This document shows positions 1 to 53,743 of a stretch of 64,000 bases of DNA, piece by piece. The translations under genes were made by a program, and so were the position numbers. Every line of letters starts with the position of its first letter. The first letter of the stretch is position 1. The notes under the pieces are model-generated. The model was not told where the DNA came from. It saw nothing but the letters and a program-made list of their open reading frames with translations, and made no database searches. This stretch comes from Candidatus Rokuibacteriota bacterium (lineage in GTDB: Bacteria > Methylomirabilota > Methylomirabilia > Rokubacteriales > CSP1-6), in NCBI GenBank assembly GCA_005887895.1, contig VBPC01000173.1:3006-67005 (forward strand), given 5' to 3'.

Positions 1-593
1 TCGACGAGCTCGATCAGCTCGGCCTTGGCCTCGTCGACGCCGGCCACGTCGTTGAACGTGGTCTTGAGCTCCTTGCGGTCGTAGATCTTGTGCTTGCTGC
101 GCCCGAAGGAGAGCGCCTGGGTGGGCCCACCGCCGACCCGCCGCATCAGGAACATCCAGATGCCGACCATGATCCCGAGCGGGATGACCCACCCGAACAG
201 GAGGTCCTTCCAGAACGTCGTCTCGATGCGGCCGGCGAACTCGACGTGGTGCTGCTCGAGCTCGGCGACGATCCGCTGCTCGTCCACGCCGGGAATGCGC
301 GTCACCGAGAAGACGCGGACCTCCTCCTCGGAGCCCAGAAGCTGCCGGAGGCGGTCGCCCGGCATGGCCGGGGGCGGCGGCAATGCGCCGGGCTTGGCCA
401 CGCCACGGATCTCCTTCTCGGTGAGGGCGACGCGCTCGATCTTGTCGGCGCGCAGCAGGTCGAGGAACTTCGACATCGGCAGCTCGATGGTCCGCGGGGC
501 CAGCAGCCAGCTCTGGAGGAGCGACAGCAGGACGACCACGACCAGGGCATAGGCGAGCGAGAACTGGATGCGCTGGCTGAGGCGAGGCTTCAT
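1..593 (-). CDS. ftsH: ATP-dependent zinc metalloprotease FtsH, N-terminal fragment (gene runs off the window edge)
   Basis: Minus-strand translation from the ATG (plus-strand 'cat' at 591-593) reads MKPRLSQRIQFSLAYALVVVVLLSLLQSW (TM helix)...FWKDLLFGWVIPLGIMVGIWMFLMRR (TM2)...KELKTTFNDVAGVDEAKAELIELV. This is the canonical FtsH N-terminus and the start of its AAA module. It is absent from the ORF track because it is open at the window edge. Confidence 0.75.
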   Translation of the reverse strand, partial: MKPRLSQRIQFSLAYALVVVVLLSLLQSWLLAPRTIELPMSKFLDLLRADKIERVALTEKEIRGVAKPGALPPPPAMPGDRLRQLLGSEEEVRVFSVTRIPGVDEQRIVAELEQHHVEFAGRIETTFWKDLLFGWVIPLGIMVGIWMFLMRRVGGGPTQALSFGRSKHKIYDRKELKTTFNDVAGVDEAKAELIELV

Positions 594-634
594 CGAGGGC
601 CCCTCTGCTCGATGCTAGCGTCAGGGTCCGAGTG

Positions 635-689
635 TGTCAAACGTACGGGCCTCTTTCCGCTTGACACATCGAGGCGTTGGCCCTAAAAC
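635..689. promoter_or_regulatory. Candidate divergent sigma70-like promoters between ftsH and the cydA-like gene
   Basis: The plus strand carries TTGACA (661-666), a 17-nt spacer and TAAAAC (684-689), about 95 nt upstream of the ATG at 784. The minus strand carries TTGACA (635-640 on the plus-strand scale), a 17-nt spacer and TAGCAT, facing ftsH. This is a pattern match only. Confidence 0.2.
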
Positions 690-783
690 TTGCCCGGAAC
701 GCTCATGTGATTTCGCGAACAAGCTCGTCTGCGGTGAGGGAAGTCGCACGCTCGCGGGAAGTTCGCAGTCAGAGGCCGAATCG

Positions 784-2574
784 ATGAGCATCGTGACCGC
801 CGCGCGCCGGAGCGCGTACGCGGGTGTCCTGCTGGCCGCCGTCCTGACGCTCGTTTTCCTCGCCCTCCCGGCCGAGGCCCAGCAGGCCGCCGCCAGGGAG
901 CCCGCCTACCGGGCGTTCCCCCTGCTCGGCTCACGGCTGGCCGTGTGGGCCGTCGCGCAGCTGCACCTCAACTTCGCCGCGTTCATCCTCGGCGTGCCGA
1001 TCTTCGCGGTGATCATCGAGATCATCGGCTGGCGCACGCGTGACGCCCGCTACGACTGGCTGTCGCATGAGTTCGTGAAGCTGACGTTCGCGGCGTTCTC
1101 CACGACGGCGCTGCTCGGCGCGTTCCTGCTCTTCCTCTTCGTCGGCTACTACCCGAAGTTCTGGACCTACATGTCCTCTATCTTCTTCCCGACGTACTGG
1201 GTCTACGCCCTGCTGTTCTTCGCCGAGACGTTCACCGTCTACCTCTGGTACTACGGCTGGGACTGGCTGTCGGGCTCCCGCAAGTGGATCCACGTCAGCC
1301 TGGGCGTGCTGTCGAACCTCTTCGGCACCGCCATCCTCGTGGTCGCCAACTCGTGGGTCACCTTCATGATGTCGCCCTCGGGCATCGACGACTCGGGCGC
1401 GCTCAAGGGCGGCGTGTGGGCGGCCATCCACAACCCCACCTGGATCCCGATCAACATCCACCGGCTGATCGCCAACATCGTGTTCGGGGGCACCATCGCG
1501 GGGGCGTACGCGGCATTCCGCTTCCTTTCCGCCAAGACGGACGAAGAGCGGGCGCGGTACGACTGGATGGGCTACATCGGCAATTTCGTCGCGCTGTCGG
1601 CCTTCATCGTGCTGCCGTTCGCCGGCTACTACCTGGGCCGGGAGATCTACGCGTTCAACCAGACGATGGGCATCACGATGATGGGCGGCTTCATGTCGTG
1701 GCTGTGGATCATCCAGGCCATTCTCATCGGCATCCTCTTCCTCGGCTCGAACTACTACCTCTGGCTCGGCATGGAGCGCATCCCGGGCGCCGAGCGCTAT
1801 CGCAAGTACGTCCCGCCGATGCTCATCATCCTCACCGTCGGGTTCATGGTGTGGGCGACGCCGCGCTCGATGGTCGTCACCCTGGACGAGGCGCGGGCCA
1901 TGGGCGGCACCCACCATCCACTCCTCGGCTTCTTCGGCGTGATGTCGGCCAAGAACACGGTCGTGAACCTCATGATCCTCACGACGTTCCTCTCCTACAT
2001 CCTCTACCGCCGCGCGAACCGGATCTCGACGCGGTCGTGGGTGCGCACCGGGATGGCGATCCAGTGGGCGGCCTTCGCTGTGGCCGCCGTCGTCGTGGTC
2101 TTCTACGGCGTCTACGGCTACTTCGTGGAGTCGATCGTGCGCATCGGCTTCTCGGTCTACCAGGTGGTGGCGGTGCTGGCCGCCATCGTGGTGGTCATGG
2201 CCATCGACGTGCCGCTGTTCAAGGGCGCGCGCTCGACCGGCACCATCCGCTGGGGCACCATCGCGCCCCACTCGCAGTACGTGCTCATTCTCCTGGCCGT
2301 CACCTTCACGTGGCTGATGGGCCTCATGGGCTTCGCGCGCTCCGGCATCCGGCAGCACTGGCACGTGTACGGCGTCCTGCGGGACACCTCGGTGGACGCG
2401 GCGACGCCCGCCCTCGGGTACGCGGCCAACGTGATCACGTCGGTGACGCTCGTGTTCTTCGCGCTCGTCATGTTCATCTTCTGGATCGGCGGCCTGGGCG
2501 AGAAGGGCAAGGAGACGGCGCACGGGCACGCGCCGGCCCCGGTGCTGGCCGGCGGCAGCGACCAGGACGTCTAG
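784..2574 (+). CDS. Cytochrome bd-type quinol oxidase subunit I (CydA) family homologue with an extra N-terminal signal/TM segment; no cydB follows
   Basis: The start at the ATG at 784 (MSIVTAARRSAYAGVLLAAVLTLVFLALPAEA) is inferred. The segment AQLHLNFAAFILGVPIF...GYYPKFWTYM...FFAETFTVYLWYYGWDWLSGSRKWIHVSLGVLSNLFGTAILVVANSWVTFMMSP aligns by eye with CydA TM1-TM4. The putative haem-ligand His in TM1, a Glu in the FFAETF motif and the His in INIHRLIANIVFGG are conserved. Confidence 0.7.
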   Translation: MSIVTAARRSAYAGVLLAAVLTLVFLALPAEAQQAAAREPAYRAFPLLGSRLAVWAVAQLHLNFAAFILGVPIFAVIIEIIGWRTRDARYDWLSHEFVKLTFAAFSTTALLGAFLLFLFVGYYPKFWTYMSSIFFPTYWVYALLFFAETFTVYLWYYGWDWLSGSRKWIHVSLGVLSNLFGTAILVVANSWVTFMMSPSGIDDSGALKGGVWAAIHNPTWIPINIHRLIANIVFGGTIAGAYAAFRFLSAKTDEERARYDWMGYIGNFVALSAFIVLPFAGYYLGREIYAFNQTMGITMMGGFMSWLWIIQAILIGILFLGSNYYLWLGMERIPGAERYRKYVPPMLIILTVGFMVWATPRSMVVTLDEARAMGGTHHPLLGFFGVMSAKNTVVNLMILTTFLSYILYRRANRISTRSWVRTGMAIQWAAFAVAAVVVVFYGVYGYFVESIVRIGFSVYQVVAVLAAIVVVMAIDVPLFKGARSTGTIRWGTIAPHSQYVLILLAVTFTWLMGLMGFARSGIRQHWHVYGVLRDTSVDAATPALGYAANVITSVTLVFFALVMFIFWIGGLGEKGKETAHGHAPAPVLAGGSDQDV

Positions 2575-2575
2575 G

Positions 2576-3373
2576 ATGCACGTGCCCGTCGGCGTGAAGG
2601 TCGGCCTCTTCGCCGTCGCCGTGATGGGCAGCTACTCCTACTTCGCCAACTCGATCCCGCAGATCGAGTCCAAGCCGCCGCAAGAGCTGTCGCTGGAAGG
2701 CGGCAACGTCACGCCGGCCCAGCTCGTGAAAGCCGGCGAGGAGATCTTCCACACCAAGGGCACCTGCGAGATCTGCCACCGCATCGGCCAGCCGGGCACG
2801 CGGGCGCCCGACCTGGCCGGCGCCGGCGGGCGCGCCGCCAAGCGGAAGCCCGGCATGAGCGCCAAGGCCTACCTCATCGAGTCGCTGCTGCAGCCGCAGG
2901 CCTACGTCGTCGAGGGCTACCCGCCGATCATGCCGGCCGTGGACAAGCCGCCGATCGCGCTCAATCGCTCCGAAGTGTGGGCGCTGACCGCGTTCCTCGA
3001 GTCGCTCGGCGGCACCGTCGACGTGACGCTGAACGACATCCCGGCCAGCGTCGGCGCGGCGGCGGCCGGCGGCGGGGCGGCGGAGTTCAAGATTCCGGGC
3101 GATCCTCAGGCCGGCGCCCAGGTGTTCCAGGGCAAGGGCACCTGCATCGCGTGCCACAAGGCGGGCAAGATCGGCGCCTCGCCGGTCGGTCCCGACCTCT
3201 CGCAGATCGCCAAGATCCAGACGCCCGACTACATCATGGGGAAGATCCTGAATCCGGCCGGCATGGGCACAGTGGCCGGCTTTCCCAAGGGTGTCATGCC
3301 CCAGGACTTCGGCACGCGGCTGACCTCGAAGGAGTACGTCGATCTCGTCTCCTTCCTGCTCACCCTGAAATGA
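2576..3373 (+). CDS. Dihaem c-type cytochrome
   Basis: There are two CxxCH motifs (CEICH, CIACH), each followed by a distal Met-containing segment, and an N-terminal hydrophobic anchor. The gene begins 1 nt after the upstream stop. Confidence 0.8.
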   Translation: MHVPVGVKVGLFAVAVMGSYSYFANSIPQIESKPPQELSLEGGNVTPAQLVKAGEEIFHTKGTCEICHRIGQPGTRAPDLAGAGGRAAKRKPGMSAKAYLIESLLQPQAYVVEGYPPIMPAVDKPPIALNRSEVWALTAFLESLGGTVDVTLNDIPASVGAAAAGGGAAEFKIPGDPQAGAQVFQGKGTCIACHKAGKIGASPVGPDLSQIAKIQTPDYIMGKILNPAGMGTVAGFPKGVMPQDFGTRLTSKEYVDLVSFLLTLK

Positions 3374-3377
3374 GCCG

Positions 3378-4142
3378 ATGAGATTCCTCCGCTCGCGCTT
3401 CCTGCAGGCCGTCGCGATCTTCGTGCTGGCGTTCGTCGTCCTGCGCTTCGGGATCCGGCCGCCGGCGCCGTGGAGCGTCCTGTCGCTCTACATGTTCATC
3501 ATCACGCTGGCGCTCCTCATCTTCGTCTCATCCGATCGCGACTCGTGGCGCGACTTCGTGCGGCCGATCTGGCTGACGCTGACCGACCCGCGCTACCGCG
3601 GGCTGCGTTCGGTCATCGTCGTGCTGGTGCCGCTGCTGTTCGGCTACTACGCCTACACCCAGGCGGCGGCCAAGCCCCAGGGGCCGCCCGAGCTGCGCGC
3701 GGTGCACCCGGCGCCGCCCGCCTCGATCCAGTTCCGCGGCAAGGAGATCAACATCTCCGGTGTGGAGAACCCGCTGCGCAAGGACGCGGCGGCGTTCGGC
3801 AAGCACGTGGCGGCCGGCCACGACACCTACATCCGCAATTGCGTCTACTGCCACGGCGACAACCTCGACGGCAAGGGCCACTTCGCCTACGGCTTCAACC
3901 CGCCGCCGGCGAACTTCCAGGATCCCGGCACCATCGCGATGCTGCAGGAGGCCTACCTCTTCTGGCGAATCGCCAAGGGCGGCCCGGGGCTGCCGAAGGA
4001 ATCGACGCCGTGGAACTCGGTGATGCCGGCCTGGGAGGAGCGTCTCACGGAGGAGCAGATCTGGCAGGTGATCATGTTCCTGTACGATTTCACCGGCCAG
4101 CAGCCGCGCCGTTGGGAAGCGGGAGAGCATGCCTCCCACTAG
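3378..4142 (+). CDS. Membrane-anchored mono-haem class I cytochrome c
   Basis: Two N-terminal TM helices are followed by a single CVYCH haem-binding motif and a downstream Met region (NSVMPAW). Confidence 0.75.
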   Translation: MRFLRSRFLQAVAIFVLAFVVLRFGIRPPAPWSVLSLYMFIITLALLIFVSSDRDSWRDFVRPIWLTLTDPRYRGLRSVIVVLVPLLFGYYAYTQAAAKPQGPPELRAVHPAPPASIQFRGKEINISGVENPLRKDAAAFGKHVAAGHDTYIRNCVYCHGDNLDGKGHFAYGFNPPPANFQDPGTIAMLQEAYLFWRIAKGGPGLPKESTPWNSVMPAWEERLTEEQIWQVIMFLYDFTGQQPRRWEAGEHASH

Positions 4143-4158
4143 GTGGCGGGCGCCGATA

Positions 4159-5733
4159 ATGGCCCATCTGCGTCGTTGCCTTCTCGCTCCTCCCTGCGGC
4201 GTGGCCGGGCCACGCCGCAGTCGTCGCTCGTCGGCGCCTAGCATCTGGACCATTCTCGGCGCCCTACCTCGACCCGGGCTGGCACAGCTGATTTTCTGCG
4301 CGAGTGTTGCGGCCTCGCTGGCGCTCGCCGCGGACGTCGGTAATGCGTTCGCGCAAGCTGGGGATGCGAATGCGGGGAAGGCGGTTTACGAGAAGAAGTG
4401 TGCGGGGTGTCATGGTCAGAACGGCGACGGGAAGGGGCCGGCGGCGGAGCTGCTGGTGCCGGCGCCGCGGGATTTCACGCGGGGGTTGTACAAGATCCGG
4501 ACGACGGCGAGCAAGGCGCCGTCGGACCGGGACCTGTTCAAGATCATCACGGACGGCATGCCCGGGACCTCGATGCCGTCGTGGGCGGTTCTCCCGGACA
4601 AGGACCGCTGGAATCTCGTGGCATACCTGAAGACCCTGGCGCCGGAGGCGTTCAAGGAGGCGCCCAAGAAGCTCGAGCTGCCGAAGGAGGTCGCCTCCTC
4701 GGAGGCGTCGATCAAGCGCGGCAAGGAGATGTTCGAGGCGATCGAGTGCCACAAGTGCCACGGCACCGACGGGCGCGCCGATGGGCCGTCGCGGCCTGAG
4801 CTCAAGGACGAGTGGGGCCATCCGATCGCGCCGGCCAACCTCACCAAGCGCTGGACCTTCCGGGGCGGGCCGGGACGGACCGAGATCGCCACCCGGCTGG
4901 CCGCCGGCGTCCTCGGCACGCCGATGCCGACCTTCATCGACAGCGTCGAGAAGCCGGAGGACATCTGGCACCTCGCGAACTATCTCGCCTCGCTGGGCCC
5001 CGAGCGCCCGAGCTACGCCACCCTGATCACGGTCACCGCCGTCCGCGGCGACATCCCCGACGATCCCAACGCCGAGTTCTGGAAGAAGCTGACGCCGAGC
5101 GCCATCCCGCTGATGGGCCAAATCATCCAGGATCCGCGTAACTTCAATCCGTCGGTGGATCTCGTCGCCGTCCGAGCTGCCTACAACGAGCGGGACGTCG
5201 TGTTCCACCTGACGTGGGACGACCCCAGCGAGTCGAAGGGCGACGGCAAGCAGACGTTCGCCGACGCGATCTCGCTCCAGTTCCCGCCGCAGATCACCGC
5301 GTCGATCGAGCGGCCCTATTTCCTGATGGGCGACGCCAACGAAGGCGTGTACCTGTTGCGCTGGGAGCAAGGCAAGGGCGTCGGCGAGGCGACCGCCAAC
5401 GGGCCGACGAAGATCGCACCGATCGCGGGCGGCGAGGCGGGCGGCAAGGCGGTGTACGACCACGGCCAGTACCGGCTGGTGATGCGGCGCCCGCTGGCCG
5501 CCACCGGCGAGGCGCGGCCGACGTTCCGGCCGGTCGTGTTCACGCCGGTGGCGATCCAGGCCTGGGACGGCGGCGCCGGGGAGACCGGCACCAGGATGTC
5601 GCTGACGTCATGGTACTATCTGCGGCTGGAGGAACCGCAGTCGAACCGACGCTTCGTCATTCCTCCCGTCGTGGCAATCCTCACACTGGCAGCCATGGTC
5701 CTCGTCGTGCGCGCGGCGAATCGCGTCCGATGA
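4159..5733 (+). CDS. Dihaem cytochrome c fused to an EB_dh-like (DMSO-reductase gamma / ethylbenzene dehydrogenase gamma type) haem-b domain, with a C-terminal TM anchor
   Basis: The N-terminal half carries CAGCH and CHKCH. The C-terminal half (HLTWDDPSESKGDGKQTFADAISLQFPP...YFLMGDANEGVYLLRW...) resembles the Met/Lys-ligated haem-b EB_dh fold. A C-terminal hydrophobic helix (VIPPVVAILTLAAMVLVV) follows. The start is uncertain: ATG 4129, ATG 4159 or GTG 4201 are all possible. Confidence 0.6.
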   Translation: MAHLRRCLLAPPCGVAGPRRSRRSSAPSIWTILGALPRPGLAQLIFCASVAASLALAADVGNAFAQAGDANAGKAVYEKKCAGCHGQNGDGKGPAAELLVPAPRDFTRGLYKIRTTASKAPSDRDLFKIITDGMPGTSMPSWAVLPDKDRWNLVAYLKTLAPEAFKEAPKKLELPKEVASSEASIKRGKEMFEAIECHKCHGTDGRADGPSRPELKDEWGHPIAPANLTKRWTFRGGPGRTEIATRLAAGVLGTPMPTFIDSVEKPEDIWHLANYLASLGPERPSYATLITVTAVRGDIPDDPNAEFWKKLTPSAIPLMGQIIQDPRNFNPSVDLVAVRAAYNERDVVFHLTWDDPSESKGDGKQTFADAISLQFPPQITASIERPYFLMGDANEGVYLLRWEQGKGVGEATANGPTKIAPIAGGEAGGKAVYDHGQYRLVMRRPLAATGEARPTFRPVVFTPVAIQAWDGGAGETGTRMSLTSWYYLRLEEPQSNRRFVIPPVVAILTLAAMVLVVRAANRVR

Positions 5734-5789
5734 GGTCACCGATGGTCGATCACATGCTCAACTCACGCACAGCAGGAGGGGTACCGGTC

Positions 5790-6479
5790 ATGCGGAAGGT
5801 AGCGACGGCAGGCAGCGTGGCCGCGCTCGTCATCGGCGCGGCGATGTGGTGGGCAGCCTCGGTGGACGCGCAGGGCGGCGGCACCATCGAGGCTGACGTG
5901 AAGTACAACGGCGCGCCCAAGGTCGAGAAGCTCAAGGTCAACAAGGACACCGAGAAGTGCGGCACCGAGACGACGATCGAGCACGTGGTGGTGGGCTCCA
6001 ACAAGGGCCTCGCCAACGCGGTGGTCTCGGTTCCCGACGCCAAGGGGGCCACCAAGGCCAAGGGCGCGATCGACCAGCACGGCTGCCGGTTCGTGCCCCA
6101 CGTGGTCGTGATGCAGCCCGGCGAGATCGAGATCAAGAACTCCGACGACATCCTGCACAACATCCACACGTACTCGACGGCCAACCCGTCCATCAACAAG
6201 GCCCAGCCGAAGTTCAAGAAGGTGATGACGGAGAAGCTCGAGAAGCCGGAGTTCGTGAAAGTCACCTGCGACGTGCACAGCTGGATGCTCGGCTGGGTGG
6301 CGGTGGTGCCGGGCCTGGCCGCCGCGACCGACAACAACGGCGTCGCCAAGATCGAGAACGTGCCGGCCGGCAAGCACAAGGTCGAGGTGTGGCACGAGAC
6401 GCTGGGCAAGCAGGAGAAGGACGTCGACGTCAAGGCCGGGCAGGTGACCAAGGTCAGCTTCGAGCTGAAGGGCAAGTGA
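5790..6479 (+). CDS. Periplasmic cupredoxin-like (type-1 copper) protein with a C-terminal beta-sandwich domain
   Basis: An AGGAGG ribosome-binding site lies 7 nt upstream of the ATG, and a signal peptide follows. The putative Cu ligands are His in KNSDDILHNIH and Cys/His/Met in CDVHSWM (C-x2-H-x2-M). The C-terminus is CarboxypepD_reg-like (GVAKIENVPAGKHKVEVWHE). It is a paralogue of the gene at 13177-13926. Confidence 0.6.
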   Translation: MRKVATAGSVAALVIGAAMWWAASVDAQGGGTIEADVKYNGAPKVEKLKVNKDTEKCGTETTIEHVVVGSNKGLANAVVSVPDAKGATKAKGAIDQHGCRFVPHVVVMQPGEIEIKNSDDILHNIHTYSTANPSINKAQPKFKKVMTEKLEKPEFVKVTCDVHSWMLGWVAVVPGLAAATDNNGVAKIENVPAGKHKVEVWHETLGKQEKDVDVKAGQVTKVSFELKGK

Positions 6480-6512
6480 GCCGGGCCGGCGGCCGGAGAC
6501 GGGGGAACGCGC

Positions 6513-7176
6513 ATGCTTGACTGGTGGCTGCCTGAAAACGTCTCGACCTACGGGCGGGACATCGACTGGTTGTTCCACCTCATCTACTACATCACCGGGA
6601 TCACCGCGATCCTCGTGTTCGGGGCCATGATCATCTTCCTGGTGATGTACCGCGACCGTCCCGGTCGCCGGGCCCGCTACACCCACGGCAACACCACGCT
6701 GGAGATCGTCTGGACGATCGTGCCGGCGCTGATCCTCGTGATCCTGACGCTGCTGAGCGTCCCGGCGTGGTCGAAGATCAAGATGACCATGCCGGAGACG
6801 GACTTCATCGTGCAAGTGACCGCGAAGCAGTTCAACTGGCAAATCACCTATCCCGGCCCCGACGGCAAGTTCGGCACCGACGACGACAAGACGCTGCTCG
6901 ACGAGATGCACGTGGCAGGACGCGGTGCCGGGCCGCCAGATCGTGCAGTGGTTCGAGGCGACCAAGCCCGGCAAGTACGAGCTGCCGTGCGCCGAGCTGT
7001 GCGGCTTCGGCCACTCCGGCATGCGCGGCTGGATCTACGTGCACACGCCCGACGAGTACGCGAAGTGGGCGGCGGAGAACCTGACGGCCCAGGCGGCCGG
7101 CGGCGAGCAGAAGCAGGCGGACGAGGCCAAGCCGGCGGCGCCCGCCGCCAAGACGGGAGGAAAGGCCAAGCGATGA
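6513..7176 (+). pseudogene. coxB: Cytochrome c oxidase subunit II (CoxB) disrupted by an internal deletion of about 27 codons plus a frameshift
   Basis: Frame 0 (6513 to about 6911) encodes the two TM helices and ...VQVTAKQFNWQITYPGP...DDDKTLLDEMHV. The conserved continuation (PVG..V....TS.DViHsF.vP...vK) is absent. Frame +2 resumes at about 6917 with QDAVPGRQIVQWFEATKPGKYELPCAELCGFGHSGMRGWIYVHTPDEY, which contains the CuA ligands, and runs to the stop at 7176. Confidence 0.7.
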
Positions 7177-8927
7177 GCGCCACCACCGCGACGGCTCACG
7201 CGCACGTTGCACACGAGCATCACGAGCTGGGCTTCGTCCGGACGTACATCTTCTCGACCGATCACAAGATGATCGCCCGCCAGTTCCTGTTCCTGGGGCT
7301 GACGATGATGATCCTCGGCGGCCTGCTGGCGCTGATCGTGCGCTGGCAGCTGGCGTGGCCGGAGACGCCGATCCCCGGCATGGCGCACATCTTCACCGAG
7401 ACCTCGCCGCCCGGGATCATCCAGCCGCCGCAGTACAACATGGCGTTCACCATGCACGCCACGATCATGATCTTCTTCGTGATCATGCCCATCCTGGCCG
7501 GCGCCTTCGGCAACTTCTGCATCCCGCTCATGATCGGCGCCCGCGACATGGCCTTCCCGTTCCTGAACATGCTGTCGTTCTGGGTGACGGGCACGGCCGG
7601 GGTCATCATGCTGTCAGGCTTCTTCGTCGAGGGCGGCCACGCCGCCGCCGGCTGGACGTCCTACGCGCCGTTGTCGGCGGTGCCGGAGTACACCGGCGTC
7701 AACTGGGGCCAGAACATCTGGTGCATCAGCCTGTTCGTCATGGGCGTCGGCTCCATGATGGGCTCCATCAACTACATCACCACGATCATCAACATGCGGG
7801 CGCCCGGCATGCGCCTGTTCCGCATGCCGCTCGTCGTGTGGTCGCTGTTCATCACGGCCATCCTCCTGCTGCTGGCGCTGCCGGTGCTGACCTCCGGTGT
7901 GGCCATGCTGCTGTTCGACCGCACGCTCGGCACCTCGTGGTTCAAGCCGTCGGGCGGCGGCGAGCCGCTGCTGTGGCAGCACCTGTTCTGGTACTTCGGC
8001 CATCCCGAGGTCTACATCCTCATCCTGCCGGCCATGGGCATCGCCTCGGAGATCCTGCCGGTGTTCTCCCGCAAGCCGATCTTCGGCTACCACGCCATGG
8101 CGTTCTCGATGATCGGCATCGCGTTCCTGTCGTGGATCGTCTACGGCCACCACATGTTCGTGAGCGGGATGAACCCCCGGCTCGGCATGGCGTTCACGGT
8201 GAGCACGATGATCATCGCGGTGCCCTCGGCCATCAAGACCTTCAACTGGCTGGGCACCCTGTGGGGCGGCCGCATCCAGTTCAAGGTGCCGATGCTGTTC
8301 GCGCTCGGCTTCGTGTCGATGTTCGTGATCGGCGGGCTCAGCGGCATCTTCATGGCCAGCACCCCGGTCGACATCTACATCCAGGACACCTACTTCATCG
8401 TGGCCCACATCCACTACGTCGTGTTCGGCGGCTCGATCTTCGGCGCCTTCGCGGCGATCTACTTCTGGTTCCCGAAGATGTTCGGGCGGATGCTGAACCC
8501 GGTCCTCGGCCATCTCCACTTCTGGGGCACCCTGATCTTCTTCAACTGGGTGTTCTTCCCGATGCACATCATCGGCGTCGGTGGCCAGATGCGGCGGATC
8601 TACAACCCGATGCAGTACGAGTTCCTCCAGCACCAGCAGCACTGGAACGTGTTCATGACCTACGGCGCGCTGTGCCTGGGCGCCGTCCAGCTGCTGTTCG
8701 TGGTCAACTTCTTCTGGTCGCTGTTCGCCGGCCGCAAGGCGCCGATGAACCCGTGGAACTCCACGACCCTCGAATGGACGGCGCCCTCGCCGCCGCCGCA
8801 TCTCAACTGGGGCGCGACCGTGCCCACCGTCTACCGGGGGCCGTACGAGTACAGCGATCCCGAGGCGGCCGAGGACTTCCTGCCGCAGAACCAGCCGCCG
8901 GCCCGGGTCGGCGCGCGGGCTCACTGA
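7173..8927 (+). CDS. coxA: Cytochrome c oxidase subunit I (A-family haem-copper oxidase)
   Basis: The ATG overlaps the coxB stop (ATGA). The protein is 584 aa with 12 TM helices and the hallmark motifs [22 protein letters not shown] and HHMF...GGLSGI...HYV. The tail extends out to ...PARVGARAH. Confidence 0.92.
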   Translation: [584 protein letters not shown]

Positions 8928-8941
8928 CGGAGACGCCCGGG

Positions 8942-9820
8942 GTGAGGCTGGCGCATCGCCTGGCCGTGCTGACGGCCGCCGCGACCGGCGTGCTCATCGT
9001 CTTCGGCGGGCTCGTGACGAACACGGGCGCCGCCCTGGCGGTGCCCGACTGGCCGACGACGTTCGGCCACAACATGTTCCTGTTCCCACCCTCGCAGATG
9101 GTGGGCGGCGTGTTCTACGAGCACAGCCACCGCCTGCTCGGCGCCCTCGTGGGCGGACTGACGGTGGGGCTGGCGGCGATCCTCTGGCGGCGCGGCGGCC
9201 GCTGGCGCGCGCTCGCCGTCGCCGCCGCGCTCCTCGTCGTCCTCCAGGGCGTCGTCGGAGGGCTGCGGGTGGTGCTGCAGACGGAGGCGCTCGCCATGAT
9301 CCATGGTCCGCTGGCGCAGGCGTTCTTCGCGCTGACCGTCACCATCGCGCTGCTCACGTCGCCCCGGATGGCCGCGCCGGCGCTCACGGTGGATGCGACC
9401 ACGCGCCGGCTGACGCTGACCGCCGCGGCGACGGTGTATCTACAGATCGTGTTCGGCGCGCTCCTCACTCACGCCGGTTATCTCGGCCTCCACCTGGCCG
9501 GCGCGCTGGCCGTCTTCGTCCTGGTGCCGATCGTCACCGCGCGCCTGCGGCATGGCGGCGACCCGGTGGCCGCGCCGGCGGCCCGCGCCCTCCTGGCTCT
9601 GCTGGGGCTGCAGCTGCTGCTCGGCGTCGGCAGCTATCTGGTGCGCTTCTCGGCGATCTGGATCCCGGGCGGACAGCTCACGATGCTGGCGGCGCCCGTC
9701 GCGCATCGGCTGGCCGCCGGCCTCGTCCTCGCGGCCGTCGTGGTGCTGGCCGTCCGCGTGCTGGCCTCCGCGCGGCCGGCGGTGCTCGACGTTCCCGGCG
9801 TGCTCGGAGTCGTGTCATGA
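8942..9820 (+). CDS. ctaA: Haem A synthase (CtaA/COX15 family, short type-2 form)
   Basis: The GTG start is in frame with the stop at 9820. The protein has eight TM helices, the motifs DWPTTFGHNMF and YEHSHRLLG, and His in downstream helices. Confidence 0.7.
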   Translation: MRLAHRLAVLTAAATGVLIVFGGLVTNTGAALAVPDWPTTFGHNMFLFPPSQMVGGVFYEHSHRLLGALVGGLTVGLAAILWRRGGRWRALAVAAALLVVLQGVVGGLRVVLQTEALAMIHGPLAQAFFALTVTIALLTSPRMAAPALTVDATTRRLTLTAAATVYLQIVFGALLTHAGYLGLHLAGALAVFVLVPIVTARLRHGGDPVAAPAARALLALLGLQLLLGVGSYLVRFSAIWIPGGQLTMLAAPVAHRLAAGLVLAAVVVLAVRVLASARPAVLDVPGVLGVVS

Positions 9821-9938
9821 AGCCCCGCGCGTCTGGAACAGGCCACCTGCGGTTCACGCCGGCCGCGCGGACCCCGCTACGATTGAAGCCCCGCGCGCCT
9901 GGAACAGGCCACCTGCGGTTCACGCCGGCCGCGCGGAC
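9818..9938 (+). repeat. Tandem direct duplication (2 x 55 nt with one mismatch, 11-nt spacer) that exactly fills the ctaA-ctaB intergenic region
   Basis: Copy 1 at 9818-9872 is tgaagccccgcgcgTctggaacaggccacctgcggttcacgccggccgcgcggac. The spacer is cccgctacgat. Copy 2 at 9884-9938 is identical except for a single T-to-C change. Copy 1 starts at the ctaA stop codon and copy 2 ends at the ctaB ATG. Each unit contains the inverted pair ccgcgcg / cgcgcgg. Confidence 0.85.
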
Positions 9939-10841: not shown

Positions 10842-10966
10842 GCATGAGCGCCGTCATGACCGACCCCGGCGACCTCGGCCAGCGCAACCGGCTCGTCCGC
10901 CGCATCCTGCTCGGCATCGTCGCCGTGCTGATCGTCGCCTCGTTCATGGTGGGGATTCGCTGGTGA
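10838..10966 (+). CDS. Small single-TM protein (42 aa) wedged between ctaB and cox3
   Basis: Its ATG overlaps the ctaB stop (ATGA). The sequence is MSMSAVMTDPGDLGQRNRLVRRILLGIVAVLIVASFMVGIRW. It is in the same frame as, and directly upstream of, the next gene, and is below the ORF-track size cut-off. Its coding status is unproven. Confidence 0.3.
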   Translation: MSMSAVMTDPGDLGQRNRLVRRILLGIVAVLIVASFMVGIRW

Positions 10967-11038: not shown

Positions 11039-11575
11039 GTGCGGCTGGCGATGATGTTCCTGATCGCGGGCGAGGTGATGTTCTTCGCCGCCCTCGTCTC
11101 CGGCTTCTTCGTCCTGCGGCTGGCGGCGCCGCTGTGGCCGCCGCCGCTGCAGCCGCGGCTGCCCGTGTTCGTGACCGGGCTCAACACGCTCGTCTTGCTC
11201 GGCTCGAGCATCGCCATGCTCGGCGCGACGCGCGCCGTGGGGCGCGGGGAGCGGTCGCGGGCGCTGCGCCGCCTGGCCCTCACGGCCGCGCTCGGCATCC
11301 TGTTCCTCGCCGTGCAGGGCTACGAATGGACGCGGCTGATCGAGTACGGCCTCACCACCTCGTCCGGCGCCTACGGCGGCACGTTCTACACACTGATCGG
11401 CGCGCACGCCGCCCACGTGCTGGGCGCGCTGATCTGGCTGGCCGTCACCCTGACGCTGGCCGCCCGCGGGCGTTTCCTCGACGGCCGCACCGCCGTGCTG
11501 CGAGCGTGCGCGATCTACTGGCACTTCGTCGTGGCCCTGTGGCCGGTTCTCTACGTGACGGTCTACCTGATATGA
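11039..11575 (+). CDS. Cytochrome c oxidase subunit III family protein (short, copy 1)
   Basis: A GTG start gives a 178-aa protein with motifs YEWTRLIEYGL, GTFYTLIGAHAAHVLGALIWL and YWHFVVALWPVLY. Confidence 0.7.
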   Translation: MRLAMMFLIAGEVMFFAALVSGFFVLRLAAPLWPPPLQPRLPVFVTGLNTLVLLGSSIAMLGATRAVGRGERSRALRRLALTAALGILFLAVQGYEWTRLIEYGLTTSSGAYGGTFYTLIGAHAAHVLGALIWLAVTLTLAARGRFLDGRTAVLRACAIYWHFVVALWPVLYVTVYLI

Positions 11576-15854: not shown

Positions 15855-16002
15855 GGTTCGTGGGCGGCGGCGGGGGCGGGGTCCGGCGACCACGAGGTAG
15901 GCGGCGATGGTTGGGATGCGTGATTCCCTCGTGCCGGGTGGCTCCGTAAGCGGTTGCGGGAAACGGGTCGGCGGACCCCGCCCCCGCCGCCGCCCACGAA
16001 CC
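15855..16002. repeat. 36-nt inverted repeat (35/36 match) with a 76-nt spacer, forming a large potential stem-loop between the USP/PCP_red gene and the radical-SAM gene
   Basis: Arm 1 at 15855-15890 is ggttcgtgggcggcggcgggggcggggtccggcgac. Arm 2 at 15967-16002 is gtcggcggaccccgcccccgccgccgcccacgaacc, the reverse complement with one G/C mismatch. The loop contains a nested cacgagg / cctcgtg inverted pair. Confidence 0.85.
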
Positions 16003-39192: not shown

Positions 39193-39836
39193 GCGAAGCC
39201 CTGGAAATCCGTGATGGCGCGCTCGGCGCCGGCGCCGACCAGCTCGCGGCCGGTGTGGGCGGTGGTCACGCCGATGACGCGCATGCCGGCGTTGCGAGCG
39301 GCGTGGACGCCCACCAGCGAGTCCTCGAACACGAGACACGTGCGCGGCGGCAGCGCGATCCCGGCCGCCGCCTTCAGATAGACCTCCGGGTTCGGCTTGC
39401 CCCACTGCACGTCCTCGGCGGTGACGATCGTCCCGAAGTGTTGCCGCAGGCCGACCTCGCCCAGGAGCACCTCGGCGTCGCGCCGTGACGCCGAGGTCGC
39501 CACTGCCCGCGGCACGTCCAGCCGCACGAGGACCTCGACGAAGGCCGGCGCGCCGGGGATCGCCACCATGCCGCGGGCGGTCAGCTGCGTGTAGAGCTCG
39601 CGCTTGCGCGCGGCGAGCGCCACCGCCTCCTCGCGGGCGACCGCGCGGCCGAGCAGGAGCGGCACCGCCTCCTCGGCCGGGCGGCCGATGGTGAGGCGCC
39701 AGTAGTCCGGCGGCGGCTCGACGCCCATGTCGCCGAGCAGGAGGCGCCAGGCGTCGCGATGGTGGGCGCCGGAATCGATCAGGACGCCATCCATGTCGAA
39801 GATGACGCCCCGCGCGTCGGCGGCGCGAACGCTCAC
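39180..39836 (-). CDS. HAD-superfamily hydrolase (subfamily IA, beta-phosphoglucomutase-like)
   Basis: Motif I is IFDMDGVLIDS, motif II is ATSASRRD, and motif III/IV is GKPNPEVY...FEDSLVGVHAARNAGM. Confidence 0.75.
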   Translation of the reverse strand: MSVRAADARGVIFDMDGVLIDSGAHHRDAWRLLLGDMGVEPPPDYWRLTIGRPAEEAVPLLLGRAVAREEAVALAARKRELYTQLTARGMVAIPGAPAFVEVLVRLDVPRAVATSASRRDAEVLLGEVGLRQHFGTIVTAEDVQWGKPNPEVYLKAAAGIALPPRTCLVFEDSLVGVHAARNAGMRVIGVTTAHTGRELVGAGAERAITDFQGFAWPV

Positions 39837-42617: not shown

Positions 42618-43583
42618 GTGAATTCCGGGACGCGATCGGTCTTTGTCGTGACGGGTGGGGCGGGGTTCATCGGGTCGCATGTCGTCGAGCGGCTGTTGCG
42701 TGATCAGCCGGGGGCGACGGTACGGGTGCTCGACGATTTCTCGACCGGTAGCGAGGCGAACCTGCCGTTTGCGGCCGCCGCCGGGAACCGGCTGGAGATC
42801 GTGCGCGGCGACATCCGGGATCTCGACACGGTGGAGCGGGTGGCGACGGGGGCGTCGGTGATCTTTCATCAGGCGGCGCTGCGGTCGGTGCCGCGGTCGG
42901 TGGACGATCCGCTCGGCACGAACGCGCGGAACGTGACGGGCACGCTGCACGTGCTCGAGGCGGCGCGGCGCCAGCGCGTGCGGCGCGTGGTGTACGCGTC
43001 GTCGTCGTCGGTGTACGGCGACCGGCCGGAGCTGCCCAAGCGCGAGGACCAGCCGCCGGCGCCGATCTCGCCCTACGCGGTCTCCAAGGCGGCCGGCGAG
43101 CAATACGCCCGGGTGTGGACGCAGCTCTACGGCGTCGAGACGGTGGGCCTCCGCTACTTCAACGTCTTCGGACCGCGGCAGGACCCCGCCTCCGAGTACG
43201 CCGCCGTCATCCCGCGCTTCATCCTGTGGGCGCTGCACGGCACGCCGCTCGAGGTGCACGGCGACGGCGAGCAGTCGCGCGACTTCACCTACATCGACAA
43301 CGTGGTCGACGCCAACCTGGCCGCGGCGAGCGCGCCGGCCGCCGCCGGCGAGGCCTTCAACGTCGGCTGCGGCAATCGCGTGAGCCTGCTGGAGATCATC
43401 GGGCGGCTGGAGAAGATTCTCGGCCATCCCGTGGCACGGCGGCACACGCCGGCCCGGGCGGGCGACGTGCCGCACACCCAGGCCGACGTGAGCAAGGCCG
43501 AGAAGCTGATGGGCTACGTGCCGCAGGTCGACTTCGACGAAGGCTTCCGGCGGACGGTCGACTACTTCAGGAGGAGCGCATGA
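42618..43583 (+). CDS. NAD-dependent epimerase/dehydratase (UDP-GlcNAc/Glc 4-epimerase-like)
   Basis: The cofactor motif is VFVVTGGAGFIGSHVV, and the catalytic pair is SSSSVYG...YAVSKAAGE (YxxxK). A GTG at 42618 is the inferred start; the ORF-track GTG at 42570 would add an atypical 16-aa extension. Confidence 0.8.
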   Translation: MNSGTRSVFVVTGGAGFIGSHVVERLLRDQPGATVRVLDDFSTGSEANLPFAAAAGNRLEIVRGDIRDLDTVERVATGASVIFHQAALRSVPRSVDDPLGTNARNVTGTLHVLEAARRQRVRRVVYASSSSVYGDRPELPKREDQPPAPISPYAVSKAAGEQYARVWTQLYGVETVGLRYFNVFGPRQDPASEYAAVIPRFILWALHGTPLEVHGDGEQSRDFTYIDNVVDANLAAASAPAAAGEAFNVGCGNRVSLLEIIGRLEKILGHPVARRHTPARAGDVPHTQADVSKAEKLMGYVPQVDFDEGFRRTVDYFRRSA

Positions 43584-44986
43584 CGCGCCGAGCGCTGCTC
43601 GCGATGCTGGGCGCGGCGCTGGTGGCGGTGGCCGGCGGCGCCGGGGCCGACGCCCAGGGTCCGCCGAACCTCGTCGTCCAGGTGTCGACCGAGCCGCCCG
43701 GCCTCGACCTCACCGCGACGCCGGCCTCGGCCACCGCCGGGGTCGTTCTCTACAACATCCAGGAGTGCCTGCTGAAGGTCGATCGACACGGCAAGCTCGT
43801 GCCGTGGCTGGCCGAGCGGTGGCACACCGCGGACAACCGCAACTACACGTTCTTCCTCCGGCGCGGTGTGCGCTTCCACAACGGCCGCGAGCTCAAGGCC
43901 GCCGACGTGAAGTACGTGTTCGAGCGGGCGCTGAACCCGGAGACCAAGCATCCCTACGCGAAGGACTACGAGGCGATCGGCGACATCATCGTCAAGGACG
44001 ACTACACCGTCACCTTCACGCTCAAGAGCGTCAACGCCAACTTCCTGCAGAACATCGCGCGTCAGGGCTCGGTGATCTATCCGCGCGACAAGGACTACTA
44101 CGTCAAGGGGCTGCCGAAGCTCGATCGCGTCACCTTCCGCTTCATCACCGATCCCAACGCGATCCAGGCCGCCCTGAAGGCCGGCGACATCGACGCCTCG
44201 CTGTTCGGGCTCGGGGCCGAGCACGTGCAGGACTTGCAGAAGGACCCGCGGTTCACGGTCATCGTGGGCGACACCACCAACGACGTCATCCTCGCCATGA
44301 ACAACTCGCGCAAGCCCTACCGCGACGTGCGCGTGCGGCGGGCGATGACGTACGCGATCAACAAGCCGGACGTCCTCAAGGGCGCCATGTTCGGCATGGG
44401 CAAGATCCTCGGCACCAACGTCGATCCGCTCAATCCCTACTACGTCGACCTCTCGAACGCGATGCCCTACGATCCCGCCCGGGCCAGGAAGCTGCTGGCC
44501 GAGGCCGGCTACCCGAACGGGTTCGAATCCGTCCTCCGGGTCTCGCCCCAGTACCAGTACACGGTGCGTTCGGGTGAGGTGATCGTCGACAACCTGCGCA
44601 AGGTCGGCGTCAATGTGAAGATCGAGCAGATCGAGTGGGCGCAGTGGCTCGCCCGCGTCTTCCGCGAGGCCGACTACGACCTCACGATCATCGGACACGC
44701 CGAGGCGTGGGACATCAAGAACTACGCGAACCCGAAGTACTACTTCCGCTACGACAGCCCGAAGTTCCAGGAGCTCTTCACGAAGTCCGAGGAGACCGTG
44801 GACGACGCCAGGCGCCGCGACCTCTACGTGCAGATGCAGAAGCTGCTGGTGGAGGAGGCGCCGGCGGTGTGGCTCTACATGCACCCCCGCCTGGCGGTGG
44901 CCAAGAAGGGCGTGCAGGGCCTCTGGAAGGACCTGCCCGTTCCGGCCGCCGACCTCTCCGAGGTCTCGTGGACGCCGGCCAAGTAA
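43580..44986 (+). CDS. ABC transporter substrate-binding protein, family 5 (peptide/nickel)
   Basis: A signal peptide (MTRRALLAMLGAALVAVAGG) is followed by the SBP_bac_5 fold. Its ATG overlaps the upstream stop. Confidence 0.8.
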   Translation: MTRRALLAMLGAALVAVAGGAGADAQGPPNLVVQVSTEPPGLDLTATPASATAGVVLYNIQECLLKVDRHGKLVPWLAERWHTADNRNYTFFLRRGVRFHNGRELKAADVKYVFERALNPETKHPYAKDYEAIGDIIVKDDYTVTFTLKSVNANFLQNIARQGSVIYPRDKDYYVKGLPKLDRVTFRFITDPNAIQAALKAGDIDASLFGLGAEHVQDLQKDPRFTVIVGDTTNDVILAMNNSRKPYRDVRVRRAMTYAINKPDVLKGAMFGMGKILGTNVDPLNPYYVDLSNAMPYDPARARKLLAEAGYPNGFESVLRVSPQYQYTVRSGEVIVDNLRKVGVNVKIEQIEWAQWLARVFREADYDLTIIGHAEAWDIKNYANPKYYFRYDSPKFQELFTKSEETVDDARRRDLYVQMQKLLVEEAPAVWLYMHPRLAVAKKGVQGLWKDLPVPAADLSEVSWTPAK

Positions 44987-51642: not shown

Positions 51643-52661
51643 GCAGGCCGGCGCGACAGGGGAGGGCGACCGTGGGCGGTGTCCAGGGCGTCGTGAACTG
51701 GGCGGAGGCGTCGGTGCTGGTGACCGGCGGCACCGGCTCGTTCGGCAACAAGTTCGTGGAGATCATGCTCGAGAAATACCACCCGCGCCGCCTGGTGGTG
51801 TTCAGCCGCGACGAGCTCAAGCAGTCGGAGATGATGGGGCGCTTCAAGGATCCCAGCCTGCGCTTCTTCGTGGGCGACGTGCGCGACAAGGAGCGGCTGG
51901 AGCGCGCGATGCACGGCGTCGACGTCGTGATCCACGCCGCCGCCCTCAAGCAGATCCCCTCCTGCGAGTACAACCCCTTCGAGGCGATCCAGACCAACGT
52001 CATCGGGGTCAAGAACGTCATCGACGCGGCGATCGACCAGGGCGTGCCGCGGGTGATGGCCATCAGCACCGACAAGGCCGTCAACCCGATCAACCTCTAC
52101 GGGGCCACCAAGCTCTGCGCCGAGAAGCTGGTCGTGCAGGGCAACGCCTACGGCCACCCGCGTTCCACGATCTTCAGCGTGGTGCGCTACGGCAACGTCA
52201 TCGGCAGCCGGGGCAGCGTCATCCCGCTCTTCGCCGAGCAGAAGCGCACCGGCACGGTGACGGTGACCGACCCCGACATGACGCGCTTCTGGATCCGGCT
52301 CGAGGACGGCGTCGCCTTCGCGATCCGGTGCATCGAGCGGATGCGGGGCGGCGAGATCTTCGTGCCCAAGATCCCCAGCATGCGCATCCTCGACCTCGTG
52401 CAGGCGGTGGCGCCCGGCTGCCGGGTGGACGTCATCGGCATCCGGCCCGGCGAGAAGCTGCACGAGATCCTGATCTCCGAGGACGAGAGCCGCCAGGCCG
52501 TCGAGTTCGACGACATGTTCGTGGTGGAGCCCATCTATCCCTCGTGGCCGTTTCCCGCCTGGGAAGGCGGGAAGCGGCCCGGCGCCGGCTTCCGCTACTC
52601 GAGCGACACGAATCAGTGGTGGCTCAGCGGTGCCGAGATGCAGGACCTGGCCCGTGGCTGA
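51639..52661 (+). CDS. pseB: UDP-N-acetylglucosamine 4,6-dehydratase (inverting), PseB/FlaA1 family
   Basis: The blocks are VLVTGGTGSFGNKFV, YGATKLCAEK (YxxxK) and the PseB-typical HAAALKQIPSCEYNPFEAIQTNVIGVKNVIDAAI. Confidence 0.85.
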   Translation: MSRPARQGRATVGGVQGVVNWAEASVLVTGGTGSFGNKFVEIMLEKYHPRRLVVFSRDELKQSEMMGRFKDPSLRFFVGDVRDKERLERAMHGVDVVIHAAALKQIPSCEYNPFEAIQTNVIGVKNVIDAAIDQGVPRVMAISTDKAVNPINLYGATKLCAEKLVVQGNAYGHPRSTIFSVVRYGNVIGSRGSVIPLFAEQKRTGTVTVTDPDMTRFWIRLEDGVAFAIRCIERMRGGEIFVPKIPSMRILDLVQAVAPGCRVDVIGIRPGEKLHEILISEDESRQAVEFDDMFVVEPIYPSWPFPAWEGGKRPGAGFRYSSDTNQWWLSGAEMQDLARG

Positions 52662-53743
52662 TCCGCTGGCCCTGCACGGCGGCCGGCCCGTCCGGAGCGC
52701 GTTGCTGCCGTACGGCCGCCACCTCGTCGACGCCGCCGACGTGCAGGCCGTGGTGGCGACGCTGCGCGACGGGCTCATCACGACCGGCCCCGCGGTGGCG
52801 GACTTCGAGCGCGCGTTCGCCGCCGCGGTGGGGGCGCGCCACGCGGTGGCCGTCAGCTCGGGGACCGCGGCGCTGCACACGGCCGTGTTCGCCGCCGGCC
52901 TCGGGCCCGGCGACGAAGCCGTCACCACGCCGCTGACGTTCGTGGCGACGTCAAACGCCGTCCTCTACCAGGGCGCCCGGCCGGTCTTCGCCGACGTGCG
53001 CCCGGACACCCTCACGCTCGACCCGGCCGCCGCCGCCGCCGCGCTCACGCCGCGCACGCGCGCGCTGATGCCCGTGCACTTCGCCGGCCAGGCGTGCGAC
53101 CTGGACGCGTGGGAGCGCCTGGCCCGCGCCCGCGGTCTCGTGCTGATCCAGGACGCCGCCCACGCGCTCGGCGCCGAGGTGGGCGGCCGTCGCGTCGGCG
53201 GCGGGGAGGGCCTCACCGTCTTCAGTCTCCATCCGGTCAAGCACATCACGACCGGCGAGGGCGGCGTGGTGACGACCGACGACGCCGGCCTGGCCGAGCG
53301 GATGCAGCGCTTTCGCAACCACGGCCTGGCGACGGATGCCGGCACGCGCGACGCCCACGGGCGCCTCTGGTCGGAGATGGTGGACCTCGGCTACAACTAC
53401 CGGCAAGGACGTGCCCGGCTTCACGCTGCCCCAGGTCGTGCCCGACGCCCGGCACGCCTGGCATATCTTTCCGGTGCTGGTGGAGTCGCAGCGGCTGTCC
53501 GCCGATCGCGCCACGGTCTACGCCGCGCTGCGCGCCGAGAACATCGGCGTCACGCTGCACTACGTGCCGGCCTACTGGCATCCCTACTACGCCGCGCGCG
53601 GCTACACGCGAGGGCTCTGTCCCGTCGCCGAGGACGGCGCCGAGCGGCTGCTCACGCTGCCGATCTTTCCGGGCATGACCGACCAGGACGTGGCCGACGT
53701 CATCCACGCGGTGCGGAAGGTCGCGGAGCACTACCAGCGATGA
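52654..53743 (+). pseudogene. pseC: DegT/DnrJ/EryC1-family aminotransferase (PseC-like) disrupted by an internal deletion of about 30 codons plus a frameshift
   Basis: Frame 1 encodes the N-terminal two-thirds up to ...RLWSEMVDLGYNYR (cgg at about 53401) and then runs into out-of-frame Arg/Ala-rich sequence. The conserved continuation (MTDIQAALGLSQL...RRR.IA..Y...L) is missing. Frame +2 resumes immediately with KDVPGFTLPQVVPDARHAWHIFPVLVESQR...HYVPAYWHPYY...VIHAVRKVAEHYQR and ends at the stop at 53743. Confidence 0.7.

Follow-up and report, generated by a model that had tools for sequence, protein, structure and literature searches.

The cox operon and its interrupted coxB gene

The DNA analyzed here, a 64-kb stretch referred to throughout as the window, comes from an uncultured soil Rokubacteria/Methylomirabilota population. 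The closest genomes were all metagenome-assembled Candidatus Rokubacteria or Methylomirabilota, with CoxA at 96% to JBGQFW010000026. The locus is an ordinary coxB-coxA-ctaA-ctaB-COX3-COX4 operon of this soil Rokubacteria population, and its first genes are arranged as follows.

6513 to 6914, + strand: coxB 5′ part, frame 0, encoding a pair of transmembrane helices and the first part of the cupredoxin domain, ending ...LLDEMHV
6588 to 6914, + strand: foreign coxB allele patch, 327 nt, adjoining junction 1
6914/6915, + strand: junction 1, 80 nt absent (CCGGTCAACAAGGTCGTCCACGTGAACCTGCGCTCCCAGGACGTCATCCACAGCTTCTTCGTGCCCCAGTTCCGGATGAA in siblings), +1 frame shift
6915 to 7176, + strand: coxB 3′ part, frame +1, QDAVPGR...CAELCGFGHSGM, then an Ala/Lys-rich tail
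7173 to 8927, + strand: coxA (subunit I), intact (PF00115, E 3e-153), its ATG overlapping the coxB stop

The coxB gene (6513–7176) is broken at 6914/6915, leaving two parts in different frames. The 5′ part starts with the ATG at 6513, and its peptide (...DDDKTLLDEMHV) reaches 6914, the base up to which it can be aligned to the coxB of siblings and relatives. Within it, the COX2 transmembrane domain of Pfam (PF02790) was matched with an E value of 2.3e-13 over profile positions 10–86 of 88. The 3′ part begins QDAVPGRQIVQWFEATKPGKYELPCAELCGFGHSGM in frame +1 and stops at TGA 7174–7176. Here, the COX2 profile (PF00116) was matched over positions 78–113 of 120 only, in another frame than the 5′ part, compared with positions 47–113 in one frame in the sibling contig L082. 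The window coxB retains the N-terminal helix pair and lacks a complete single-frame periplasmic cupredoxin domain. Both halves are otherwise open and conserved, with no further decay in either. Frame 0 has no stop before coxA, giving an 804-aa fused open reading frame (ORF), and an exact-product look-up of this coxB′-coxA fusion returned no record among known protein products. The exact product of coxA itself is recorded in JGI contig L001. An initial annotation of this DNA had already placed the two ends of coxB in different frames, and had seen the coxA start overlapping the stop of the C-terminal frame (ATGA); both observations held, with a +1 split at 6914/6915, the coxA ATG at 7173, and the TGA at 7174–7176.

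Other features were observed around the operon. Directly upstream, at 784–4142, lies a CydA-like gene (PF01654, with no obvious CydB) followed by two c-type cytochrome genes; this may be a cytochrome bd-like oxidase variant. Between ctaA and ctaB, a 55-nt direct repeat occurs in two copies (9818–9872 and 9884–9938; 98% identical, period 66), and is also present in siblings L001 and L085. Further downstream, a G+C-rich inverted repeat of 37 nt (15855–15891 and 15966–16002; 97% complementary, 74 nt between the arms) is located between a Usp/PCP_red gene and a radical-SAM/SPASM gene. An Rfam scan of the whole window, including this inverted repeat, gave zero matches. From its position 9666 onward (window 17124), ENA scaffold L085 leaves the window in the middle of a SPASM cysteine motif and continues into unrelated sequence of lower GC; as the window reads through the motif normally, L085 is probably chimeric at this point.

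Sibling contigs carry the missing 80 nt in coxB

To size the gap, positions 6400–7300 were used as a BLASTN query against 80 loci encoding related CoxA proteins. Alignments broke at 6914/6915 in essentially every alignable relative. The relatives carried extra bases at this point, 80 in the best-matching genomes and 81–82 in two, where the surplus reflects BLAST boundary placement. The same 80-nt gap was found against all three of the close sibling contigs first recovered. The gap is therefore exactly 80 nt, or 26 2/3 codons, corresponding to the 27-codon peptide PVNKVVHVNLRSQDVIHSFFVPQFRMK, and the 3′ part of coxB lies in frame +1 because these 80 bases are missing. The segment is kept in every alignable relative, down to 58% CoxA identity.

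Siblings of the window were recovered by exact-product look-ups and a flank search, and are soil metagenome contigs, among them JGI contigs (Ga0066679, Ga0066704, Ga0209471, and others), ENA CRIT18-1 scaffolds, and k141 contigs. Jointly they tile the entire 64 kb, and the best sibling per stretch is 99.7–99.98% identical to the window, a few short divergent patches excepted. The siblings that span the coxB site, L084, L082, L083, L092, and L089 (the last being the same record as L084), come from independent JGI and ENA assemblies, and all contain the 80 nt. The closest, L084 (Ga0066679_10001617), differs from the window by four mismatches in 1–6587 and by one in 6915–7088. Siblings 99.9% identical to the window have coxB in an ordinary single frame. 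In addition, the 23-mer across junction 1 had zero matches in 241 million JGI metagenome contigs.

These comparisons bear on much of what had been proposed from the letters alone. The estimate of about 27 missing codons (80–85 nt) was accurate, and the alignment to orthologues suggested for sizing the gap has now given its exact length. Additional sequence of roughly 80 nt restoring a single frame had been named as evidence that would overturn the idea of a damaged gene, and the sibling contigs carry precisely that. The other escape named, a lineage that naturally lacks the segment and restores the frame, found no support, as the relatives keep the segment and the siblings are single-frame.

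Several database proteins were considered as independent deletion alleles and rejected. The truncated or rearranged CoxB proteins P0003–P0008, P0011, P0043, and P0086 (source “src”) have junk-peptide or read-through ends, and P0003–P0008 and P0043 (...RSEERRVGKECRSRWSPYH, ...SEEHTSELQSPMYLVCRL) look like chimeric protein-level assemblies rather than natural variants.

The missing segment contains a CuA ligand

The missing 80 nt code for PVNK(V/I)VHV.LRSQDVIHSFFVPQFRMK. In this segment, the histidine of DVIHSF aligns with chain residue 192 of 1M56_B, subunit II of Rhodobacter sphaeroides, which we take to be CuA ligand His217 in mature numbering (an offset of +25). The alignment of Cys227 to Cys252 agrees with this offset. 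The initial annotation had considered the CuA site intact; it is not, because the first CuA histidine sits in the missing 80 nt. The window keeps five of the six ligand positions, all within CAELCGFGHSGM, and so does not contain the full ligand set (His, Cys, Glu backbone, Cys, His, Met), while the DVIHSF histidine is retained in all siblings. Two β-strands of the cupredoxin fold are also held in the missing segment.

The 240-aa sibling version of the protein aligns with aa3 subunit II of R. sphaeroides (1M56_B) and Paracoccus denitrificans (1AR1_B/1QLE_B) at an E value of 1e-30, and shares with it two transmembrane helices and a cupredoxin domain with H...CxExCxxxHxxM ligands. In contrast, the window copy is without the strands bearing the first His ligand and is spread over two frames. 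The Thermus caa3 enzyme (2YEV_B) has a fused cytochrome c domain, which is absent here.

Three further holes in the window

Alignment with the siblings revealed that the window contains four holes of 65–101 nt, at 6914, 10966, 44088, and 53403, all of them private to the window. The three beyond coxB are listed below.

10966/10967, + strand: junction 2, 65 nt absent (GCCCGCTCGCC...GGGCGCGTC), in the first COX3-like gene
44088/44089, + strand: junction 3, 93 nt absent, in frame, in an SBP_bac_5 binding protein gene (43580–44986)
53403/53404, + strand: junction 4, 101 nt absent, causing a frameshift, in a DegT/DnrJ/EryC1 aminotransferase gene (52654–53743)

Junction 2 lies within the cox operon, which had been described as otherwise pristine; this does not hold, as the 65-nt hole damages the beginning of the first COX3-like gene. 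When compared with siblings L086 and L087, this gene (GTG at 10963, which overlaps the stop codon of a 42-aa ORF) has lost codons 2–22 and is shifted in frame. The conserved COX3 part persists as an ORF at 11039–11575, with a restart possible only at GTG 11039. In scaffold L085, an 11-N gap begins exactly at the left base of this junction, 10966.

At junction 3, the loss comprises AVDTMKSAPIGTGPFRFEDWVRGDRIVLVRN, the conserved GTGPF...DRIVL core of the SBP_bac_5 (ABC) solute-binding protein, and the shortened product had no record among known protein products by exact-product look-up. Sibling L108 ends exactly at 44088, L103 and L104 begin 16 nt into the missing piece, and L105 spans it. Junction 4 leaves 52654–53403 of the aminotransferase gene in one frame and 53404–53743 in another. 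A GC3 frame plot independently flagged a frame switch at ~53400, though the plot is too noisy for use alone. L103 ends exactly at 53403, the 10-N gap of scaffold L116 starts at the same base, and on the right side L119 and the right piece of L116 begin 7 nt later. The aminotransferase gene sits within a NeuB/CMP-sugar type cluster.

The three holes beyond coxB all fall in conserved genes, and two of them cause frameshifts. There is no microhomology at junctions 1 (CACGTG/CCGGTC...GGATGAA/GCAGGA), 2, and 4, and 1 nt at junction 3. Outside the four junctions, no coding indels relative to the siblings were found in the window. The base-level accuracy of the window is therefore high, and the holes form a separate, join-type class. 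Multiple lesions of the same type occur on one contig and are missing from near-identical sequences, as would be expected of an assembly-join artefact.

Hole edges coincide with assembly break points

We mapped 54 sibling contig ends and N-gap edges in the window. Four of these fell exactly on left junction bases (10966, 44088, and, twice, 53403), compared with 0.003 expected by chance. None of the 54 fell on a right junction base. Instead, right-side sibling contigs begin 5–15 nt past the left edge and continue straight through the right edge of the window’s hole. A segregating deletion allele would make an assembly graph branch at both edges. As the siblings read through the right edges, the three left edges are best read as graph break points caused by a small variant just past the left edge rather than as branches of a deletion allele, and a biological deletion has no reason to coincide with positions where assemblers stop.

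This coincidence holds at three of the four holes, while coxB shows nearby breaks only. Around coxB, L090 ends at ~6841 and L084 at 7088, and L001 starts at 7144 and L085 at 7531; no sibling ends exactly at 6914, ~6841 and 7088 being the nearest ends. The window contains zero N, whereas the sibling scaffolds L085 and L116 have N runs at two of the hole sites.

The siblings have private deletions of their own, similar in size to those of the window. L108 lacks 84 nt between 12-nt direct repeats (window 39660–39731), L120 lacks 75 nt (window 59188–59261), breaking a 691-aa gene, and L103 lacks ~47 nt (window 44526–44565). Short holes are a frequent feature of this population’s assemblies.

A foreign coxB allele adjoins the junction

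In the 327 nt that lead up to junction 1 (6588–6914), the window shows 41 base differences and a 3-nt indel relative to L084, with the last difference at 6894, while the flanks of this patch are 99.4–100% identical to L084. The patch is ≤89% identical to every locus fetched, the best DNA match being L099 at 89%, and no donor was found among these loci. Of the base differences, 24 of 41 are at third codon positions; counted by codon, 18 are synonymous only and 12 change the amino acid, mostly conservatively. This pattern of third-position change and purifying selection indicates a functional natural allele of another strain rather than sequencing noise or decay. By the same reasoning, relaxed selection was ruled out as the source of the 44 differences in 6588–6894, which contrast with a single difference in the C-terminal half of coxB. 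Similar protein alleles, P0001 and P0004, run on normally through the 27-residue segment.

Mosaic alleles also occur elsewhere in the window. At 4182–4428, in the 5′ region of a dihaem cytochrome c/EB_dh gene, two alleles ~15% apart have near-identical flanks, one shared by the window, L084, and L094, and the other by L082, L091, L092, L095, and L097. The region has the appearance of a true recombination block within the population, and as such blocks occur, the coxB patch could itself be a genuine recombination tract.

Origin of the coxB hole

The annotation that drew attention to coxB left two explanations standing, a very recent inactivation of subunit II or a local assembly or sequencing deletion. 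With the siblings intact, the junction unique, and three more holes in the same window, the second is favored and the first has become unlikely. We consider it probable, at roughly 80%, that the coxB hole is an unfilled or collapsed join of assembled pieces at a strain-variable site; the organism itself most likely does not have the 80-nt hole. This reading follows from coxB being one of four holes, three of which lie at the breaks of other assemblies; for the coxB site, the argument is partly one of analogy with those three. In such a scenario, the population would contain several co-occurring strains, and the assembly graph would break at strain-variable sites. One piece ending with 6914 and another beginning with 6915 would then have been joined without the intervening 80 bases, whether through a scaffold gap whose Ns were dropped, the cutting out of unsupported sequence, or the collapse of the join. 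Over its final 327 nt, the left coxB piece would follow another strain’s variant arm, and the same join process could have acted at the other three sites, in each case without the 65–101 nt between neighboring pieces. The holes, their absence from all siblings, the three edge coincidences, and the foreign patch were observed directly; the exact technical step that removed the bases is inferred.

Gaps and local assembly errors at the scaffold joins of metagenome genomes have been described (PMC7111523; Chen, Anantharaman, Shaiber, Eren & Banfield 2020). The holes found here resemble those errors in being short missing or wrong stretches at joins, concentrated where strain variants stop the assembler, and in giving rise to gene calls that are truncated or frameshifted although the contig is otherwise accurate. 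A further likeness is that scaffolds L085 and L116, both siblings, have literal N-gaps at two of the junction bases. Unlike those errors, the window flanks are butted together with zero Ns, which counts against an artefact, since scaffold gaps would need to have had their Ns removed. Nor does a plain graph error fit well. De Bruijn graph errors of this kind normally require a shared k-mer at both ends, and the shared end sequence at the holes amounts to just 0–1 nt of microhomology.

A genuine and very recent deletion private to one strain is an unlikely alternative. Under this explanation, one strain lost 80 nt of coxB, including the CuA histidine, and its aa3-type oxidase was inactivated; a divergent piece of coxB may have been imported in the process, recombining homologously at ~6588 at its left end and joining illegitimately at its right. 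The sequence as given does carry the deletion, and the 327-nt foreign tract ends within 20 nt of the hole, the geometry of one-sided illegitimate recombination, in a population where recombination blocks are real (4182–4428). The other lesion of the operon (10966) would suit decay after loss of function, and the upstream CydA-like oxidase gene (784–2574) could in principle reduce dependence on the aa3-type oxidase. However, the deletion is absent from all five spanning siblings (L089 being the L084 record) and from all JGI contigs, and the lesion of a pseudogene, which would be looked for in independent sequences of the same lineage, appeared in none of them. Four deletions of 65–101 nt against ~0.1% substitutions over 64 kb far exceed natural indel rates, and two of the four holes are outside the cox operon, in conserved genes. 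Nor would a strain-private deletion predict that three left junctions, but no right junction, fall on break points of other assemblies. In coxB itself, the junction is without microhomology and neither half shows other decay. A comparable known process is homology-facilitated illegitimate recombination of naturally transformable bacteria, which, like the coxB site, combines a foreign tract that ends in homology at one side with a deletion at the other. The joins formed by that process usually have 3–10 nt of microhomology, unlike the coxB junction, and it cannot explain the other three holes, because there is no foreign tract there. That all four holes are real, so that one strain very recently lost coxB, the COX3-like start, the core of an ABC binding protein, and a sugar aminotransferase, is improbable.

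Two other accounts fare worse. Bases might have been removed after assembly by data handling, either through the stripping of masked or ambiguous stretches or through deliberate removal of segments when the window was prepared. The window’s lack of N, when runs of N occupy two of the hole sites in sibling scaffolds L085 and L116, would agree with such removal, as would the similar size of the four holes (65–101 nt). Random excision would not, however, match the contig ends of independent assemblies with single-base precision, nor would it adjoin a patch of foreign allele, and we regard this account as very improbable, though it overlaps with a faulty join if the stripped stretches were scaffold-gap Ns. 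A natural, functional subunit II made from the split sequence, by programmed frameshifting or with a shortened cupredoxin domain, has in its favor only that both halves stay open. It is effectively refuted, as a CuA ligand and two cupredoxin β-strands lie in the missing piece, the segment is kept in all alignable relatives, and the 99.9% identical siblings are single-frame.

A number of specific technical causes were tried and rejected. Junction slippage, or a small-k graph shortcut, was ruled out, as neither microhomology nor direct repeats occur at sites 1, 2, and 4 and site 3 has just 1 nt. The internal repeats of L002, TGCACGTG and GCAGGACG, would yield deletions of 24 or 45 nt rather than 80. 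A lost 80-column FASTA line does not fit either, since 80 does not divide 6914 and the remaining holes measure 65, 93, and 101 nt. Coverage dropout at extreme GC was rejected as a general cause, because the missing pieces have GC contents of 60, 83, 69, and 72% against 71% for the window, only site 2 being extreme.

Implications for gene calls and for the organism

The window contains at least four traps that would corrupt gene calls, in coxB, the COX3-like gene, the SBP_bac_5 gene, and the DegT-type aminotransferase gene. Before a frameshifted or truncated gene from a metagenome contig is labeled a pseudogene, it should be compared with its counterparts in sibling contigs. If the four holes were real, they would represent blunt deletions of 65–101 nt, each beginning at a polymorphic site, and would imply that genes decay rapidly in a free-living population and that deletions arise there by an unusual process, either targeted or linked to recombination. 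At face value, the coxB lesion would suggest a Rokubacteria strain that had just lost aerobic respiration via the aa3-type oxidase. Because coxB is intact in the population and the hole most likely belongs to the assembly, the organism would instead be expected to possess an ordinary subunit II of the CuA type and a functioning aa3-type oxidase operon.
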